A DNA stretch of 27,083 nt from a bacterium (GTDB taxonomy: Bacteria; Nitrospirota; Thermodesulfovibrionia; Thermodesulfovibrionales; BMS3Bbin05), in NCBI GenBank assembly GCA_050268805.1, contig JBLNHB010000343.1, positions 1 through 27,083 on the forward strand. The letters run 5' to 3'. A model generated the notes under the pieces. It worked only from the letters and a program-made list of their open reading frames with translations. It searched no databases and was not told where the DNA came from. How positions within the stretch are numbered: the stretch's first letter is position 1; every line of letters starts with the position of its first letter. The position numbers and the translations under genes are program-made. Of this stretch, positions 5,967-16,313 are shown piece by piece.

Positions 5967-6059
5967 ACTGAAATTTTTCACTCGGTTTTTGCGATATTTC
6001 CGTTTTTCCGTTTTTGTGCTATAAATAGACTATCTGTCCATGTACTTCGGTCGCCTTGA

Positions 6060-7439
6060 ATGAAAGAATACGAAATCATCGTCATCGGCTCAGGAGCAGG
6101 CTCCATCATTGTTGAAGATGCCTTGTCTCAGGGGCTTTCCGTCGCCCTCGTTGATAAGGGTCCGCTGGGTGGAACCTGCCTGAACACCGGTTGAATTCCC
6201 TCGAAACTGCTGGTGTATCCGGCAGACAGAATTGCCGAGATTCAGGAGTCCCACAAGCTCGGTATAACGGCTGAAATCAGGCAGATCGATTTCGGAACGA
6301 TAATGGAGCGCATGAGGGAAAAAGTTGTGACCGGACAGGATCATGTCCGGCAGGCAATCCGCAACAACCGGAAACTCGATTTCTACGAAGGGGAAGCCCG
6401 TTTTACCGGCAATTACACCCTTGAGATCAACAGTGAGAAGATCAGGGGCAAAAAGATCTTCATTGTAGCAGGCGCACGACCCCTGATACCAAATATCAAA
6501 GGCATCGACAGAGTCCCCTATCTCACCAATGAAACTCTCCTTGCGCTCGATGAAAGGCCGAAGAGTCTGATTATCATCGGCGGAGGCGATGTGGCGGTTG
6601 AGTATGCACACTTTTTCGCGTCTGTGGGTACTGAGGTTACGGTTCTCCAGAGGAACAGGAGACTCGTCCCGATGGAAGAACCGGAAATATCCGACCTCCT
6701 AAAGAAAGTATTGCAGAGGCGCATGACCGTTCTTACCGATACGGAAGTGACCGAAGTAAAACGTGTGGGAGGTTTCTATGCCGCCGTGGGGAAAAAGATC
6801 TCAACAGGCGAAACGGTGGAGGCCACGGCTTCGGCGATTTTGCTGGCAGCCGGAAGAAAGTCGAATGCAGATACGCTCAACGTTGAGAATACCGGAGTGA
6901 AAACGGACGACAGGGGGTACATCAAGGTCGACGATTTTTTCGAAACATCCCAAAAAAACATATGGGCCTTTGGAGATATCCTGGGAATCTCTATGTTCAG
7001 GCATGTAGCCAACAGGCAGGCCTTGATCACGTGGCACAATGCGATGCACAAGGAAAAGATGAAAATGGATTTCCAGTCAGCCCCCCATGCCATTTTCACC
7101 AGTCCACAGATCGCTTCTGTCGGCCTGACAGAAGAGCAGGCCGTGAAACAGTTTAAGCCAGGCGAAATCCTCATCGGCAGATCCCGCTATTCCGATGTGG
7201 TCATGGGTGAGGCAATGGCGGTAAGCGATGGCTTTGCCAAAGCGCTCGTTGAAAAAAAAACCGGGAGGATTCTCGGTTTTCACATGATCGGCCCATCCTC
7301 GTCTGCCCTCATTCAGGAAGTCATCAATATGATCGCCATCGGCGGAGACGCGTGGGCGCTGGGCAGGGGCATGCACATCCATCCTGCGCTCCCTGAGTTG
7401 ATCATTTCGACGCTGAACAATCTTCATGAGGGGCATTGA
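6060..7439 (+). CDS. Class I pyridine nucleotide-disulfide oxidoreductase (mycothione reductase/dihydrolipoyl dehydrogenase-like), 459 aa, with in-frame TGA (candidate Sec45) in the redox motif
   Basis: Frame from ATG 6060 reads MKEYEIIVIGSGAG (FAD GxGxxG)...GGTCLNTG[TGA 6192-6194]IPSK, in frame with the 6213..7439 ORF. Downstream AGARP, GGGDVAVE, LAAGRKSN, IWAFGD, C-terminal HPALPE His/Glu dyad. Confidence 0.9.
6194..6233 (+). promoter_or_regulatory. Candidate bacterial SECIS element
   Basis: 7-bp stem CTGCTGG/CCGGCAG (6207-6225, one G-U) with loop TGTAT, starting 12 nt after the UGA. Additional lower stem AATTC/GAATT (6194-6198/6229-6233). Confidence 0.6.
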
Positions 7440-7441
7440 AC

Positions 7442-8539
7442 ATGAAACTTGCACTCATAGGACTTCCCAATTCCGGAAAGACAACTGTGTTTAATGCTCT
7501 CACCGGACTAAATCTCGAGACAACGCTCTACCCCACGACCGCCGGAGAACCCCACATTGGCATTGTCAAGGTGCCTGACGGGCGGGTCGATGAACTCTCT
7601 CGAATCTTCAAACCCAGAAAGACAACATACGCGACTGTTGAATATGTCGATTTTCTTGGTATTACGAAAGGGGATCTGGCACAGAACAGAAAGGTGTTCG
7701 ATGTGATCAAAGATGCCGATGCTCTCGTTCACATCATTCGGGGGTTCCATGATGATGCAATCTCCCACCCCGATGGATCTGTCGACCCGATCCGTGACGT
7801 GGAAACGGTCGAAACAGAATTGATCTTTTCCGACCTGGAGCTGGTTGAGAAAAGACTCCAGAGAATGGAAGAAGGGATCAAGAGGGGCAAAAAACCGGAC
7901 GAGTCCGAAAAGAGGGTATTGATGAAGTGCAGAGAATACCTCGAAAAAGAAATTCCCTTACGCTTGGCCGTATTCGACGCTGAAGAGCTCAGATCCATGA
8001 AGCATCTGCAGTTCATATCCATTCTGCCGGTGATCAACGGTGTCAATGTTGCTGAAAGCGACCTCACAAAGGCAGTTAGCTCCACCATTGCCGACAAGTT
8101 GCACAAGAGCCTCCAAAAGCACCCGCATCTCAATGTCGTACCACCGATCATTCTTTCCGGAAAGATTGAGATGGAGATTGCCCAGCTCCCGTCCGATGAG
8201 GCTGCCGAGTTCCTCAAGGACCTTGGTATCAGCGAACCTGCCAGGGACAGGCTCATCCGTGAATCCTACAGCTTGCTCGGCTTAGTTTCATTCTTTACCG
8301 TCGGTGAAGACGAGGTGAGAGCGTGGACCATCAGGAAAGGCACTTTCGCGCTCACTGCAGCGGGGAAAATCCATTCGGACATCGAGCGAGGTTTCATCAG
8401 GGCGGAGGTCATATCATACCCTGATTTTATCCGATCGGGGAGCATGGCAGCAGCAAAGCAGCACGGTCTGCTGCGGCTCGAGGGAAAAAATTACATTGTC
8501 CGGGATGGTGATATCATCAACTTCAGGTTCAACGTCTGA
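7442..8539 (+). CDS. ychF: Redox-regulated ATPase YchF (OBG family, TGS domain)
   Basis: GLPNSGKTT P-loop, YPTT, VKVPDGR, VDFLG, FFTVGEDEVRAW, AAGKIHSDIERGFIRAEV, EGKNYIVRDGDIINFRFNV. Start at ATG 7442 with GAGGG SD. Confidence 0.97.
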   Translation: MKLALIGLPNSGKTTVFNALTGLNLETTLYPTTAGEPHIGIVKVPDGRVDELSRIFKPRKTTYATVEYVDFLGITKGDLAQNRKVFDVIKDADALVHIIRGFHDDAISHPDGSVDPIRDVETVETELIFSDLELVEKRLQRMEEGIKRGKKPDESEKRVLMKCREYLEKEIPLRLAVFDAEELRSMKHLQFISILPVINGVNVAESDLTKAVSSTIADKLHKSLQKHPHLNVVPPIILSGKIEMEIAQLPSDEAAEFLKDLGISEPARDRLIRESYSLLGLVSFFTVGEDEVRAWTIRKGTFALTAAGKIHSDIERGFIRAEVISYPDFIRSGSMAAAKQHGLLRLEGKNYIVRDGDIINFRFNV

Positions 8540-9710: not shown

Positions 9711-10709
9711 ATGCCAGAGCTGAGAAAAGACCCCGTTTCAGGGAGATGGGTCATCATATCCGTCGAACGTGGCAAGAGACCGACTGATTTTGTCCCTCTT
9801 CCGCATAAAAGAAAAACTTCAGGATTTTGCCCTTTTTGTCCCGGGAATGAACATACAACTCCGAACGAAATCCTCGTATTCCGCGACAATAAGAATGATC
9901 CGACGTCGAAATGGACCCTGCGCGTCGTACCAAATAAGTTTCCGGCTCTCCAGACCCATGGTGATCTCAGCAAGACCGGTGAGGGTATCTTTGATAGAAT
10001 GAACGGCATCGGTGCGCATGAGATCATTATCGAGACCCCCGACCACAGCCTTTCGCTTGCAACAATGCCGCAGAAGTCAGTCGAAGATGTTTTACAGGCA
10101 TACTTCCTCAGGATGACGGACCTCAAAAAGGACCCGCGGTTCAAATATGTGCTGATTTTTAAGAACGAAGGCGATATTGCAGGCGCACCGCTCGAGCATT
10201 CCCACAGCCAGATGATCGCCCTCCCCATTGTACCCAAATCAGTCATGGATGAAGAAGAATCAGCGAGAAGATATTTTGATGAAAAGGGTCGCTGCCTCTT
10301 CTGCGACGTCATTAGTCAGGAACTGAACGCCATGAAGAGAGTCATTCATCAAAACCATTCCTATATCGCGATCGCTCCCTTTGCACCCCGTGCCCCCTTT
10401 GAGACATGGATATTACCCAAACAGCACCAATCATCATTTATCTCTCCCCAGGCTCAGCTCGGTGACCTCGCGGAGATACTTCAGAGAATTTTAAGGCAGA
10501 TAGACCGTGTTCTGGGAATTCCCCCTTACAATTTCATGATCCACACTTCTCCCTTCAGTGATGAACAGAATCAATTCTACCACTGGCATATCGAGATCGT
10601 TCCAAAGTTGGCAAAAATAGCGGGATTTGAATGGGGGTCCGGGTTTTATATAAATCCTACTCCTCCCGAGGAAGCAGTCCAGTACATGAAAGAGGCTGTG
10701 CTCCCCTGA
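9711..10709 (+). CDS. galT: GalT-family nucleotidyltransferase (annotated as galactose-1-phosphate uridylyltransferase)
   Basis: MPELRKDPV...ERGKRP, CPFCPGNE Zn motif, RVVPNKFPAL, GAHEIIIETP, EHSHSQ catalytic HxH, GFEWGSG. GGGAGG SD. Confidence 0.9.
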   Translation: MPELRKDPVSGRWVIISVERGKRPTDFVPLPHKRKTSGFCPFCPGNEHTTPNEILVFRDNKNDPTSKWTLRVVPNKFPALQTHGDLSKTGEGIFDRMNGIGAHEIIIETPDHSLSLATMPQKSVEDVLQAYFLRMTDLKKDPRFKYVLIFKNEGDIAGAPLEHSHSQMIALPIVPKSVMDEEESARRYFDEKGRCLFCDVISQELNAMKRVIHQNHSYIAIAPFAPRAPFETWILPKQHQSSFISPQAQLGDLAEILQRILRQIDRVLGIPPYNFMIHTSPFSDEQNQFYHWHIEIVPKLAKIAGFEWGSGFYINPTPPEEAVQYMKEAVLP

Positions 10710-12142
10710 TGAACATTGTAATCGTTTCCCCCGAAGCAGTCCCCTTTGCCAAGACAGGTGGTCTTGCTGATGTTGCCGGTGCGCTCTTGCAGGGGCTGAG
10801 CAGGACAGGGCATGACGCTTTCTTATTTATGCCGCTGTATCGAGGTGTCCGGGGGAGCATCCGCCCGAAAGAGGCGGCACGGGGCCAGAAGATATTCATG
10901 GGAGAGCGGGCATATTACTTTGACATTCTCTCGCAGAGGAATGCCTTTTTCATTTCCAATGACTATTTCTTTGACCGTGATGGCCTCTATGGGGACTCAC
11001 GGGGCGATTTCCCCGATAATCCGGAGCGGTTCGCGTTCTTCTGCCTGTCTGTCTTGCATGCAACGAAAATTCTCGGGATAAAACCCGACATCTATCATCT
11101 CCATGACTGGCAGACAGCACTCCTCCCTCTGTACCGGAGAGAACTGTTTACTCCTGCGGACAATGCGGCTGCTGTTCTTACAATACACAATGTCGGCTAT
11201 CAGGGCATCTTCCCTCCTGAGACACTCCCCCGCTTGGGAATATCCGGAAAATTTTTCACCATTCACGGCATCGAGTTTCACGGAAATCTCAACCTGCTGA
11301 AAGCAGGCATTCTCTATTCCGATCGTGTGACCACGGTCAGCCCGACGTATGCGCATGAGATCACTTCCCCGGAGTATGGATTCGGATTGGAAGGATCGCT
11401 GAGATGGAAAGGCGTTACGGGTATCCTGAACGGAATTGACTATGACCTCTGGAATCCCGCGGATGACATCCATCTGAAAAGGAATTACACCATTCAGACT
11501 TTGCACGGGAGAGCAGCCTGCAAGGAAGAACTCCTTTCGGTCTGCCGCTTGCGGGACCGCTCCCTTCCCTTGATCGGAAGTATCGGCAGGATCATTGCTC
11601 AAAAGGGGTATGACCTTATTGCAGACTGCCTTGAGGATATCATCGGGCTGGGCGCCAACATCGTCATCCTCGGGAGAGGCGACCGGGACATCGAACAGGA
11701 ACTTCAGAGGGCTGCAGCCCGTTTTCGGGATCGAGTGCATGTGAGCACCCTTTTCAATGAACCACTTGCCAGGAAGATTTACGCCGGCTCGGACCTCTTT
11801 CTGATGCCATCGAGATATGAGCCCTGTGGTCTTGCCCAAATGATCGCGATGAGGTATGGATCGATTCCCATCGTCCGGAAGACCGGAGGCCTTGCAGACA
11901 CGGTCACGGATTTCAATAGCGGAAGTCCTGAGGGGACAGGTTTTCTTTTTCATGACGCAGACCGGAATGACCTCGTCGAGTGCATCAAGAGGGCGCTCTG
12001 CGTATGGAAGAACAAACGGGACTGGAACAGGCTTACCAGGAACGCTATGCGTTTGCGCTTTTCATGGGAACACTCAATCTCTCAGTATAGTGCTCTCTAT
12101 GGATCACTGGTGGGAAGACAGAGAAATGTACCTCAAGCATAA
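10709..12142 (+). CDS. glgA: Glycogen synthase (GT5)
   Basis: PFAKTGGLADV (KTGGL), HLHDWQT, LTIHN, TTVSPTYA, GILNGID, QKG, PSRYEPCGLAQM, TGGLADTV. ATG overlaps the galT TGA. Confidence 0.96.
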   Translation: MNIVIVSPEAVPFAKTGGLADVAGALLQGLSRTGHDAFLFMPLYRGVRGSIRPKEAARGQKIFMGERAYYFDILSQRNAFFISNDYFFDRDGLYGDSRGDFPDNPERFAFFCLSVLHATKILGIKPDIYHLHDWQTALLPLYRRELFTPADNAAAVLTIHNVGYQGIFPPETLPRLGISGKFFTIHGIEFHGNLNLLKAGILYSDRVTTVSPTYAHEITSPEYGFGLEGSLRWKGVTGILNGIDYDLWNPADDIHLKRNYTIQTLHGRAACKEELLSVCRLRDRSLPLIGSIGRIIAQKGYDLIADCLEDIIGLGANIVILGRGDRDIEQELQRAAARFRDRVHVSTLFNEPLARKIYAGSDLFLMPSRYEPCGLAQMIAMRYGSIPIVRKTGGLADTVTDFNSGSPEGTGFLFHDADRNDLVECIKRALCVWKNKRDWNRLTRNAMRLRFSWEHSISQYSALYGSLVGRQRNVPQA

Positions 12143-15100
12143 ATTAACCGTATTTCTGGCAGGTTTTCTCGCTGCTCTCCTAATCTTTGCAGCAGGGAGC
12201 ATGTATATTTTTGAAAAGTTTCAGGACGCCATCTCGATTATGAAACAGGTATCAACAGAACACAGGCAGCATGAGGTGCTCAAGGCCGCGATCGTGGATC
12301 TTGTGAGCGCTGCCAAAAACTGGGGATTCACCGGACAGCTCGAATACAAGAGAATGTACCGGGAACGGAGAAATGAGGTCATCACAACATTTGAATCACT
12401 CCGTGAAGTTACCAAGGACCGGGATGCATTGAACAGGATCGGTGAGGAATTCGACAGCATCGATCGGAGTGTCAAAGAACTCTTTTCCTATGGCCAGCCG
12501 GTCGGAAATCCCCCGGTTCTGTCCCTGATACGACAGCTCGATAACAAAACCGTCGGGATCATGGGTTCCATCGAGGAGTTCCACAATGCTTCTCTCTTTT
12601 CCCTCGACATGGTCTCTCTGAGGACCGAACGCATCAAGAACGCCATGTCAGCCTATCTCATCTCGACAATCGTTTTCCTCTTCGTCGCCTCGTTCTCCCT
12701 CCTCCTGTTGATCAGAAGAGTTGTTCACCGTCCCATGAATCTCCTCCTGACAGCGACCGAAAAAATCGCATTGGGTGATCTCGAATACCGGGTCTCCTAT
12801 GACCGTGAAGATGAATTCGGAATCCTCTCGAAAAGATTCAACGATATGATCGACAAGGTGCATGCATCAGAAACAAAGATCAAGGACAAGCTCAACGAGA
12901 CGGAAATCCTCCTCGACATCGCGAATCTGGTCAGCTCCTCCATCGACCTCTCGTCTGCGTTTACCGTTATCGCTGATATCATTCCCAAGCGAACGGTAAA
13001 GGACGGCACTGCTCTTTACCTCTACCATCCCCTGAAAAAGGACTTTAAGAGAGAAGCATACTCCAGGGACCATGCCGAGATATTTGCCGACTCAATACCT
13101 CCGGACGATACCGTTTCACGGGAAATCCTCATGCGCACGCAACCCGTATCCCTGTCGCGCGATCAGATTTCGTCGACAGGCTGTGTCAGGGGATTCACCG
13201 GGAGCCTGCTTGCTGTCCCGATTACTTCCGAGAACATGGTATCGGGTCTGTTGGTCACGGTTTCGCAATTGCAGGAAGAGATTCCCCAGGAGGAAATCAA
13301 TCTTTTTGTTCTCATCGCCCATACTATTGGAACGGCGCTGAAAAATTCCGAGCTCTATACGGCGGCAAAAACCCAGCTCAAACGGTTTTCGGCGCTCTAC
13401 GAACTGGCGCAGACCGTAACGAGCGCCCTGACCCTCGATGAACTTTTCAGGAAAGTATCCGCTGAAACGACCCGGTTGCTCAATGCGCGGGGCTGCATTA
13501 TCCGGATCCTTGATGGTGATGACCTCAAAGTCCAGTCAATGCACGGGCTCCCGGCGGGGATACAGAGAGAACTCGATCTCAAGATCGGGGACGGCATAGC
13601 CGGCATGGTCGCCAGAACCGGAAAATCCCTCCTCATCGAGGATGTTTCGGAACTTCCGGAAGAAATGAGACGGCCGCGGATCGATCTGAAGTCAGTCGTT
13701 ATCGTCCCTATGAAAATCGATGAGTCTGTCATCGGCACGATCGGACTGTTTGATAAAACAGATGCCAGGGGCACAGCCATCTCATTCAGTACCGAGGATC
13801 TCGAGACAACCGAAGGTTTTGCATCGATTACCGCCATCGGTTACGAAAAAATCATGAGCTATGACCGGGAACGGATGCGGGAACAGACTGCGCTAGAAGC
13901 CAAGAAGAGGATGGAAACACTTTTTGAGAGCGTTCGGGGAGGTATTCTCACGCTCAACCGGCAGGGTACCATCCTCCTTGCGAACAAATATGTCGAGAAC
14001 TGGATCGACCGGAAGCGGGAGGATATCATTGGAAAAAACAGCGTCGAGATATTTCACACCGCTGAGAATATGATCTGCCCTCACTGCGTATCTCAGGCGA
14101 CATTCCAGACTGGTGAAATCAATACCCTTACCCAGTCCCGCGGCATCAACTACGCGGAACTCTCCTCCTATCCTATCAGGGACGAATCCGGGAATATCAT
14201 CGAGGCTGTCGTCTTCATTCAGGATATTACCGATCGCGTTCTCTATCAGGAAGAAATCCTCAGTCTCTACAAGGAGGTCTCTCAGACAAAAGAGTACCTC
14301 GAAAGCCTGATTGATGATTCAGCGGACGCCATCATTACAACGGATCTTCAGGGAACCATTACCTCCTGGAACAGAGCGGCGGCGAGAATTTACGGCTTTT
14401 CCGAGGAAGAGGCACTGGGCACTTTTCTCCCCTTTGTACCCGACTTTCTCGTAGAAACAGAGAAAGCCTACATCGAGCGATTAAAGAAAGGAGAAACCAT
14501 CAAGGATCTCGAAACGGTCAGGATCAACAAAGAGGGAAAGATGTTCGAGATCAGCCTGACCCTCTCCCCGATCAAGGATACATCAGGAGAGATCATCGGC
14601 ATCAGCGGGATTTCGCGGGATATTTCCGAAAAGAAAAAGGTCGAAAAAGAATTGATCAGGAGAAACCAGGAGCTATCTCGGTTGTTCTTCATCAGTTCAG
14701 CGATGAGGGGAACTCTCGACCTGGAGAGGCTTCTTCGGATGATCCTCACGGCAGTCACTATGAGCGACGGCCTTGGATTTAACCGTGCCATCCTCTTCTT
14801 AGTTGACAAGGACAAGAACGTAATCAGGGGAGCCATGGGGGTGGGACCCTCTTCCGCTGAAGAAGCATGGCAGATATGGGACAAGCTCTCCATCGAGAAG
14901 AAAACGCTCCCTGATCTGCTCCAGGAAGTCGAGACCGGTCCGCTTAAAAAGGACTCTTTCCTCGATAAACTCGGGGTGGGCATGACCATTTCCCTCGATG
15001 AGGAAAGCACCTTAACACGCTCGGTCAAAGAGAAAATCCCGATCAATGTCAAGGATGTCCGAACTGAACCGCTGTCCGATGCCGTCCTCATCCAGCAGCT

Positions 15101-16313
15101 TGGTACCCAAGCATACGCGGTGATTCCTCTTGTCTCGCGGAACAACGTTCTCGGGGTCCTCTGGGTGGACAATTATTTCAACAGGAAACCAATCATCGAT
15201 GAGGACATCAGATTTCTGAGGGGATTTGCGGACCAGGTTGCTGCCGCTATCGAGGGGGCACGCCTCTTTGAGCAGGTCAAGCTCGCCGAGACGGAGCTCG
15301 AAAATATCTTTGAATCCATCTCCGACATGGTGTATTTCACCACCCGGGATTACGTCATTAAGAATATCAACAGAGCGGTTGCAGACCGACTGGGCAAGTC
15401 TCCCGAGGAGATCGTCGGAAAGAAATGTTACGAAGTCTTTCATGGTATGGACAAGCCCTGGACACAGTGTCCCCACCATAAGACCGTCGAAACCATGCAG
15501 GCATATGTCGAAGAGATTGAAGATCCCTACCTGGGCGGAACATTGCTCACTTCGAGCTCTCCGATTTTCAATACCCAGGGTGAATTTCTGGGCACTGTCC
15601 ATGTCGTGCGGGACGTCTCGGAACTGAAAAAACTCAGGGAAAAATTGGCAATGGCTGAGCGGATGGCAGCCCTCGGTGAGGTGGCCGCAAAGGTTGCCCA
15701 TGAAATCAGAAATCCTCTGGTTTCGATCGGAGGGTTCTCACGGAGACTCGAAAAGAAACTGGAGGGCAGCCTGAAAGAGTATGCCTCGGTAATCACCATG
15801 GAGGTCACCAGGCTTGAAGGAATTCTAAAGGACATCCTCGGATATGTCAGGGACATCAGACTCAAGAAGGAGATATCGATCGTCAATACCGTCATAGAAG
15901 ATGTCGTCTCCCTCATGTCCGATCAGATAAAGAAAAAAAAGCTGCGTATTATCAAAGAGTATTCCGGCGACATGAAGCACGTCGTGATCGACGGGGACCG
16001 GATCAAGGAAGGCCTTATTAATATCATCACGAATGCCGTTGATATCCTCCCCGAAAATGGCATGATAACGATCAGGACCTCTATGGAAGAAAAATATTCC
16101 GTGATCGAGATCGCAGACAATGGTCCAGGCATTGACAAGAAAGACCTTCCCTATATTTTTGACCCATTCTACACCACCAAGGTGAGCGGCACCGGTCTTG
16201 GCCTTGCCATAACCCACCGGATCATTGAACAGCACAAGGGCAGAATAGAGGTTACCAGCGCTCCCGGTGAGGGCGCTGCATTTAAAATATTCTTACCTGT
16301 AAAGGAGGACTAA
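12126..16313 (+). CDS. Membrane sensor histidine kinase: TM-periplasmic helical sensor-TM-HAMP-GAF-GAF-PAS-PAS-GAF-PAS-HisKA-HATPase, 1395 aa
   Basis: Two TM segments, HAMP (PMNLLLTATEKIALGDL...DEFGILSKRFNDM), H-box VAHEIRNPL, N-box INIITNA, DNGPGI, FDPFYTTK, GTGLGL. Start set at ATG 12126 (MYLKHK). Confidence 0.92.
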   Translation: MYLKHKLTVFLAGFLAALLIFAAGSMYIFEKFQDAISIMKQVSTEHRQHEVLKAAIVDLVSAAKNWGFTGQLEYKRMYRERRNEVITTFESLREVTKDRDALNRIGEEFDSIDRSVKELFSYGQPVGNPPVLSLIRQLDNKTVGIMGSIEEFHNASLFSLDMVSLRTERIKNAMSAYLISTIVFLFVASFSLLLLIRRVVHRPMNLLLTATEKIALGDLEYRVSYDREDEFGILSKRFNDMIDKVHASETKIKDKLNETEILLDIANLVSSSIDLSSAFTVIADIIPKRTVKDGTALYLYHPLKKDFKREAYSRDHAEIFADSIPPDDTVSREILMRTQPVSLSRDQISSTGCVRGFTGSLLAVPITSENMVSGLLVTVSQLQEEIPQEEINLFVLIAHTIGTALKNSELYTAAKTQLKRFSALYELAQTVTSALTLDELFRKVSAETTRLLNARGCIIRILDGDDLKVQSMHGLPAGIQRELDLKIGDGIAGMVARTGKSLLIEDVSELPEEMRRPRIDLKSVVIVPMKIDESVIGTIGLFDKTDARGTAISFSTEDLETTEGFASITAIGYEKIMSYDRERMREQTALEAKKRMETLFESVRGGILTLNRQGTILLANKYVENWIDRKREDIIGKNSVEIFHTAENMICPHCVSQATFQTGEINTLTQSRGINYAELSSYPIRDESGNIIEAVVFIQDITDRVLYQEEILSLYKEVSQTKEYLESLIDDSADAIITTDLQGTITSWNRAAARIYGFSEEEALGTFLPFVPDFLVETEKAYIERLKKGETIKDLETVRINKEGKMFEISLTLSPIKDTSGEIIGISGISRDISEKKKVEKELIRRNQELSRLFFISSAMRGTLDLERLLRMILTAVTMSDGLGFNRAILFLVDKDKNVIRGAMGVGPSSAEEAWQIWDKLSIEKKTLPDLLQEVETGPLKKDSFLDKLGVGMTISLDEESTLTRSVKEKIPINVKDVRTEPLSDAVLIQQLGTQAYAVIPLVSRNNVLGVLWVDNYFNRKPIIDEDIRFLRGFADQVAAAIEGARLFEQVKLAETELENIFESISDMVYFTTRDYVIKNINRAVADRLGKSPEEIVGKKCYEVFHGMDKPWTQCPHHKTVETMQAYVEEIEDPYLGGTLLTSSSPIFNTQGEFLGTVHVVRDVSELKKLREKLAMAERMAALGEVAAKVAHEIRNPLVSIGGFSRRLEKKLEGSLKEYASVITMEVTRLEGILKDILGYVRDIRLKKEISIVNTVIEDVVSLMSDQIKKKKLRIIKEYSGDMKHVVIDGDRIKEGLINIITNAVDILPENGMITIRTSMEEKYSVIEIADNGPGIDKKDLPYIFDPFYTTKVSGTGLGLAITHRIIEQHKGRIEVTSAPGEGAAFKIFLPVKED

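Follow-up and report, generated by a model that had tools for sequence, protein, structure and literature searches.

A probable selenocysteine codon at the flavin-proximal redox position of a class-I flavoprotein disulfide reductase gene from a Nitrospirota bacterium

The question raised by the gene at positions 6060–7439 of contig JBLNHB010000343.1, a stretch of 27,083 nt from a metagenome-assembled genome of a Nitrospirota bacterium (the whole stretch is referred to below as the window), is whether the single TGA inside its reading frame ends translation or specifies selenocysteine (Sec). A sequence-only reading had recognized a flavin disulfide reductase whose TGA coincides with the second Cys of the redox motif, and had proposed a natural Sec at that position. 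We consider it likely, on comparative sequence grounds, that 6060–7439 is one functional selenoprotein gene in which UGA-45 is decoded as Sec. The proposal is thus supported, with the qualification that the window copy stands apart from the main Sec clade and has a Cys-type gene as its nearest relative. For the family as a whole there is very good support for the claim that some class-I flavoprotein disulfide reductases carry Sec in the flavin-proximal position.

The interrupted reductase gene

The gene and the motifs on which its interpretation depends are the following.

6060–7439, forward strand: complete reductase gene, mycothione-reductase/NF004947-like, of 459 sense codons (codon 45 being UGA, proposed Sec) plus a terminal TGA.
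6087–6104, forward strand: GSGAGS (residues 10–15), the GxGxxG dinucleotide-binding motif for FAD, 5′ of the UGA and inside the Pyr_redox_2 match.
6177–6179, forward strand: TGC for Cys40, the first (interchange, substrate-side) redox residue.
6192–6194, forward strand: TGA, codon 45, proposed Sec at the second (flavin-proximal, charge-transfer) redox position as placed by the alignment of homologues.
6579–6665, forward strand: GGGDVA (residues 174–179), NAD(P)H-binding, and the following Arg-rich strand end LQRNRRL (residues 196–202), in the PF00070 match (residues 170–236).
7374–7397, forward strand: HIHPALPE (residues 439–446), with the acid–base pair His441/Glu446 assigned by homology, in the Pyr_redox_dim match.

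Translation confirms that the TGA at 6192–6194 is the sole internal stop and that it falls on the second Cys of the active-site motif, GGTCLNTG-U-IPSK (residues 37–49), with 44 codons before it and 414 uninterrupted codons after it. The FAD-binding fold is intact ahead of the TGA, as had been claimed, and the match to Pfam PF07992 (Pyr_redox_2; E-value 2.6e-52, residues 4–321) extends across it; PF02852 (Pyr_redox_dim) is matched with an E-value of 3.4e-23. The features of a class-I flavoprotein disulfide reductase are all present, namely GxGxxG with Pyr_redox_2 and a dimerisation domain with HPxxxE, as is the first Cys of the redox CxxxxC pair, which is completed in the window protein only if the UGA specifies Sec. 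In the alignment the codon 45 column holds Cys in 38 Cys-type homologues and TGA in 43 others. Of the 85 near-invariant family columns the window protein keeps 82, with conservative changes in the other three, and it keeps all 11 that lie upstream of the UGA. The gene shows no sign of decay.

The second Cys of the redox pair is the flavin-proximal charge-transfer thiol in this class of enzymes (glutathione reductase Cys58/Cys63, E. coli Lpd Cys44/Cys49). Among solved structures, mycothione reductases are nearest (8qcj, E-value 3e-80; 9lc9; 8rx5), and U45 lies opposite the second Cys of GGTCLNVGCIPTK in 8qcj, in agreement with the flavin-proximal placement proposed from the sequence. The best NCBIfam model is NF004947 (PRK06292.2-5, ‘dihydrolipoyl dehydrogenase’), for which the window protein scores 563 bits and does not reach the cut-off of 592, so that on sequence it is a divergent relative of that family and not a scored member; it is 51–63 % identical to NF004947-like proteins, and a Nitrospirota Sec orthologue (L044) passes the cut-off narrowly, with 598 bits. 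The mycothione reductase models TIGR03452 and NF005884 give 372.6 and 407.5 bits, again short of their cut-offs (635.65 and 501). Of the earlier description as mycothione-reductase/LpdA-like, the first half stands, together with an NADPH-type look, whereas the ‘LpdA’ label is weak. A function as dihydrolipoyl dehydrogenase (E3) was rejected on the grounds of the sub-cut-off score, the Arg-rich NADPH-type site and the lack of adjoining 2-oxoacid dehydrogenase genes; mercuric reductase was rejected as well, since the score is 341 bits (cut-off 454) and a Cys pair is missing from the C-terminus.

A more trivial explanation is that the TGA is a sequencing or assembly error and the true codon is TGC or TGT. 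The host genome is fragmented, with 377 contigs, and the local depth is low in the four sequencing runs from which Logan contigs were aligned to the region. Nevertheless, all three sampled 31-mers of 6158–6228, a segment in which 29 of the 41 possible 31-mers span the TGA, are present in four runs from two studies. The TGA-bearing sequence thus recurs in data of other studies, an outcome in favour of the proposal, which had asked for the reads at 6194 to be verified. In one run of another study (X6) two contigs span 6192–6194, one near-identical to the window and one about 92 % identical, and both carry a C to T change at 6179 that turns the Cys40 codon TGC into the synonymous TGT; no change at the TGA is among the differences listed for either. 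By our own count among those differences, 15 of 18 strain variants in 7181–7434 lie at third codon positions, and three of four upstream of the TGA are synonymous. An assembly error at the TGA is unlikely, and we assign only a very small probability to error of any kind.

Sec decoding in the genome and among homologues

The host genome is an active Sec user. The selA, selB, selC and selD genes, which had been named as a check, were all found: selA (608 bits) adjoins the tRNA-Sec gene (ARAGORN; Rfam, 69 bits), selB scores 370 bits, and selD carries an in-frame TGA of its own. At least six other TGA-containing selenoprotein genes are present, each with one in-frame TGA: four fdhA genes, selD and a Prx-like gene (C145:384-3536, C145:5046-8213, C98:9922-12759, C140:58-1110, C332:2881-3798 and C315:5082-5426). 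Each has a hairpin of 4–8 bp past the UGA, with the apical loop about 24–31 nt from the UGA; the loop of the SelD selenocysteine insertion sequence (SECIS) begins at nt 24. An open frame through a UGA would formally also fit near-cognate insertion of Trp or Cys, or a reassigned code, for which we have no specific support. TGA serves as a normal stop codon in this genome and also terminates the reductase gene itself (7437–7439), the residue at the column is always Cys in homologues without TGA, and the Sec machinery is complete; we give read-through of this kind next to no weight.

The TGA at this column is not peculiar to the window. When one genome per GTDB species (596 Gb) was scanned with the pattern G-T-C-[LIVMF]-N-x-G-TGA-[LIVMF]-P-[ST]-K, 34 loci matched, against about 0.14 expected by chance on our own estimate, and 33 of them are full-length open reading frames of about 459 codons with one TGA. 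The suggestion that homologues with TGA at this column should be sought has thus yielded 33 further full-length genes. They comprise 25 Nitrospirota orthologues (NF004947-like, 51–62 % identical to the window protein) and eight NF004992 proteins of about 30 % identity from Binatia, SAR324, Syntrophobacteraceae, Acidobacteriota and Planctomycetota, which form an all-Sec clade in the tree (L048, L049, L051, L052, L058, L061, L064 and L065). In a sample of 401 genomes of the phylum, 25 of about 79 close matches have one TGA, and among those listed with a genome the ones other than the window come from a single family (f25), in which Sec and Cys forms are intermixed. That automated pipelines truncate such genes, as had been predicted, is illustrated by the L044 gene, which is present in the public protein collection only as a 391-residue product; because such genes are stored truncated or dropped, counts of selenoproteins in Nitrospirota, Binatia, SAR324 and others come out too low.

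Some further loci deserve mention. A Nitrososphaeraceae (archaeal) contig fits the TGA pattern (L047:3730-3765) with a frame that stops after 84 codons; a gene that is broken, a frameshift or wrong binning of the contig probably accounts for this, and the locus was left out of the Sec count. Two homologues have one in-frame TAG in place of TGA (G019:C6:9067-10428 and G399:C108:11636-13006). At three Nitrospirota loci (L045, L070 and L087) a Cys-type paralogue of an Lpd-like clade, about 33 % identical, lies a few kb from the Sec-type gene.

The Nitrospirota Sec relatives share an RNA hairpin. The element UCUAUCC-GGC-GGAUAGA is common to all 23 distinct Nitrospirota Sec sequences and begins 22 nt from the U of the UGA. 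Across this set six stem pairs are invariant or almost invariant (pair 29–33 is CA once), and the basal pair covaries (UA 19 times, CG 3 times, UG once). The hairpin sits on the codons of the peptide Y-P-A-D-R. Cys forms that encode this peptide vary in their choice of synonymous codons, and in none of them does the hairpin form; between one Sec form (L071) and its close Cys sister (L081), four of the five YPADR codons differ synonymously. An unbroken stem of 7 bp or more is found in 23 of 32 Sec forms versus one of 35 Cys forms, and local folding energies of the two groups differ (p = 8e-7). The NF004992 Sec forms also have a hairpin after the UGA. A shared hairpin that is absent from Cys forms is the pattern expected of a bacterial SECIS, and it marks the family as one of real selenoprotein genes.

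The hairpin and ancestry of the window copy

Folding of the sequence that follows the window UGA gives one candidate element.

6207–6225, forward strand: candidate bacterial SECIS, stem CUGCUGG, loop UGUAU, stem CCGGCAG.

The hairpin noticed in the sequence-only reading is therefore real as a structure predicted by folding. It has 7 bp including one G-U pair, begins 12 nt past the UGA and has its loop from nt 23 (the U of UGA being the start), within 1 nt of the loop position of the same genome's SelD SECIS. Its folding energy of −11.4 kcal/mol is below that of 34 of 35 Cys forms, and the Cys gene of the sister genus (L024) has no hairpin at the site (−5.1 kcal/mol).

Several observations weigh against reading this particular TGA as Sec. 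The statistical case for the hairpin is modest: when the same peptide was recoded with the codon usage of the genome, the minimum free energy of the window hairpin was equalled or bettered in 8.7 % of synonymous recodings (p 0.087), and 3.7 % contained a stem of 7 bp or longer, a measure picked post hoc (p 0.037). The 69 nt after the UGA, folded whole, are not unusual (z = −0.5), and an Rfam scan of 6100–6400 matched no RNA family. The hairpin of the other Nitrospirota Sec forms is absent from the window, where the codons read GUG UAU CCG GCA GAC AGA. In the tree the nearest neighbour of the window copy is a Cys-type gene from a sister genus of the same family (SH-aLRT 97), although both branches are long and the join is flagged as possibly artefactual, and all other homologues found in the window's order have Cys; selA is present in five of five tested relatives. 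With sister and order-level homologues all of the Cys type, the TGA of the window is a lineage-specific event, which is also how a nonsense mutation would look. The genome moreover contains a Cys paralogue (C362:4633-5994, 51 % identity) that groups with the order-level Cys forms and could compensate for a dead gene. Searches of protein and metagenome collections turned up no relative above 70 % identity that shares the TGA: the best hit in the protein database has 63 % identity, a query with the N-terminal fragment gave no match better than about 84 % over half its length and none near-identical, and the best match in JGI metagenomes was 64 % over a fragment. The presence of the TGA in the 92 %-identical strain of run X6 is, finally, unproven.

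These points would suit a recent nonsense mutation of TGC or TGT to TGA, in which the hairpin would be coincidental and the C362 paralogue or other reductases would cover the function. Such a mutation would have had to strike, of 459 codons, the one that is the proven recurrent Sec site of the family, and to have left the gene with no further defect and with its near-invariant columns kept both before and after the stop. The allele is also found in several samples from different studies, the 7-bp hairpin stands at the spacing of the genome's own SelD SECIS, and the genome actively uses Sec. We therefore regard a nonsense mutation as rather improbable.

Three histories are then left for the window copy: Cys was converted to Sec independently and a new SECIS arose, a SECIS was remodelled, or a nonsense mutation occurred. 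On the favoured explanation, decoding as Sec, the window copy seems to have acquired its Sec form separately from its relatives. Whether the flavin-proximal Cys was replaced by Sec at least three times, in the main Nitrospirota clade, in the NF004992 clade and in the window lineage with a newly evolved SECIS, is a proposition on which we are evenly divided. If true, it would point to a recurrent selective advantage of a selenolate–flavin redox pair and to an uncatalogued flavin–selenium type of active site, with the window as a young Cys-to-Sec conversion that may show how a new SECIS arises within a coding region.

Predicted function and comparison with known systems

The product would be a homodimeric FAD-containing disulfide reductase of the glutathione-reductase/mycothione-reductase class. 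Translation of UGA-45 as Sec would use SelA, SelB, SelD and tRNA-Sec together with the mRNA hairpin 12 nt downstream, and the redox centre would then be a Cys40–Sec45 selenenylsulfide in place of the usual disulfide. The Arg-rich LQRNRRL, which aligns with GRSQRLLR of mycothione reductase, suggests a preference for NADPH over NADH. Following the standard class-I cycle, FAD would be reduced by NADPH, the S–Se bond would be opened by the reduced flavin via Sec45 with formation of a selenolate–flavin charge-transfer state, Cys40 would attack a disulfide-type substrate, and the Sec45 selenolate would resolve the mixed disulfide. In this last step it would be helped by His441′/Glu446′ of the partner subunit, the pair in the dimerisation domain being predicted by homology to serve the active site of the other subunit. 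Judged by the Arg-rich site and by its resemblance to mycothione reductase, the product would probably be a reductase that uses NADPH and acts on a small substrate of the disulfide type; the likeliest substrate is a low-molecular-weight disulfide or else a sulfur, selenium or oxidant species.

Gene neighbours indicate no substrate, either in the window or at the loci of the Nitrospirota orthologues. Upstream of the reductase gene lies a ZIP metal transporter, and downstream, 2 nt past the stop codon, begins the following gene.

7442–8539, forward strand: ychF-type GTPase/ATPase gene (YchF-GTPase_C, MMR_HSR1).

The 2-nt gap suggests that the reductase gene and ychF are probably co-transcribed. 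The ZIP, YchF and MBL neighbours of the window are not found beside homologues elsewhere; the conserved neighbours at Nitrospirota orthologue loci, an unannotated convergent open reading frame, TypA/BipA and an HtrA-like protease, suggest no redox partner. A consensus scan for promoters and terminators, in which a −35 hexamer was required, returned nothing upstream of 6060. We note an extended −10-like element (TGnTATAAT) at 6017–6025, TGCTATAAA, about 35 nt 5′ of the ATG at 6060, and a short direct repeat, CCGTTTTT, present twice (6000–6015) ahead of it. Farther along the window, downstream of a glycogen synthase-like gene (10631–12142), 11856–16313 encodes a very large (1485 aa) HAMP-GAF-PAS-GAF histidine kinase.

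In flavoprotein disulfide reductases, enzymes familiar from textbooks, the chemistry turns on the thiolate–flavin charge-transfer pair. A natural selenolate at that position would offer a ready-made comparison of Sec and Cys, with close Cys sisters available (some about 86 % identical by branch length), in which one could test whether selenium beside a flavin speeds up the resolution of the mixed disulfide, shifts the redox potential or protects against over-oxidation.

A review of May 2026 tabulates 119 families of prokaryotic selenoproteins (PMC13188914), and a CxxxxU class-I reductase is absent from them. The sole flavoenzymes there are a Sec-containing CoA-disulfide reductase/NADH oxidase (TIGR03385, with a UGxP motif), a subtype of type III sulfide:quinone reductase, and a metal-binding ‘putative mercuric reductase’ UxxU protein (PMC13188914). 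The main text of the BSepDB paper, also of 2026 (111 families, PMC13326102), makes no mention of a CxxxxU class-I reductase, the family is missing from older surveys and from deep-Sep, and none of the NCBIfam selenoprotein models was matched. The family is thus uncatalogued in these sources, RefSeq annotations and subscription journals lying outside the search. What would be new, judged from sequence, is a Sec form of a thiol oxidoreductase with Sec in the flavin-side pair.

Among known enzymes, mycothione reductase and the Cys-type NF004947 orthologues share with the window protein the fold, the length, GxGxxG, the GGTCxNxG[C/U]IP[ST]K helix, the Arg-rich NADPH site and the HPALPE pair, and they differ in having Cys at the flavin-proximal position, where the window protein would have Sec. 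The host being a Nitrospirota bacterium, the substrate probably differs from that of mycothione reductase. The NF004992 Sec forms (‘FAD-containing oxidoreductase’) have TGA in the identical column (GGTCVNTG-U-IPTK), full-length frames and a post-UGA hairpin in common with the window gene, but at about 30 % identity they belong to a separate clade with other hairpin sequences. The TIGR03385 enzyme of Geobacter metallireducens (PMC13188914 Table 1) is likewise a bacterial pyridine-nucleotide-disulfide oxidoreductase (FAD/NAD(P)H) that has Sec instead of a redox Cys next to the flavin; it is, however, of the single-cysteine class, with neither a CxxxxC disulfide nor an interchange partner, and the window protein scores 70 bits with its model (cut-off 579). 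Mammalian-type high-Mr thioredoxin reductase shares the class-I scaffold, an N-terminal CxxxxC beside FAD and Sec in a selenenylsulfide. Its Sec is carried on a mobile C-terminal extension and its flavin-side pair is Cys/Cys; the window protein ends in TLNNLHEGH with no GCUG extension and scores 171 bits with the TGR model (cut-off 476), and its Sec would lie inside the flavin-side pair itself.

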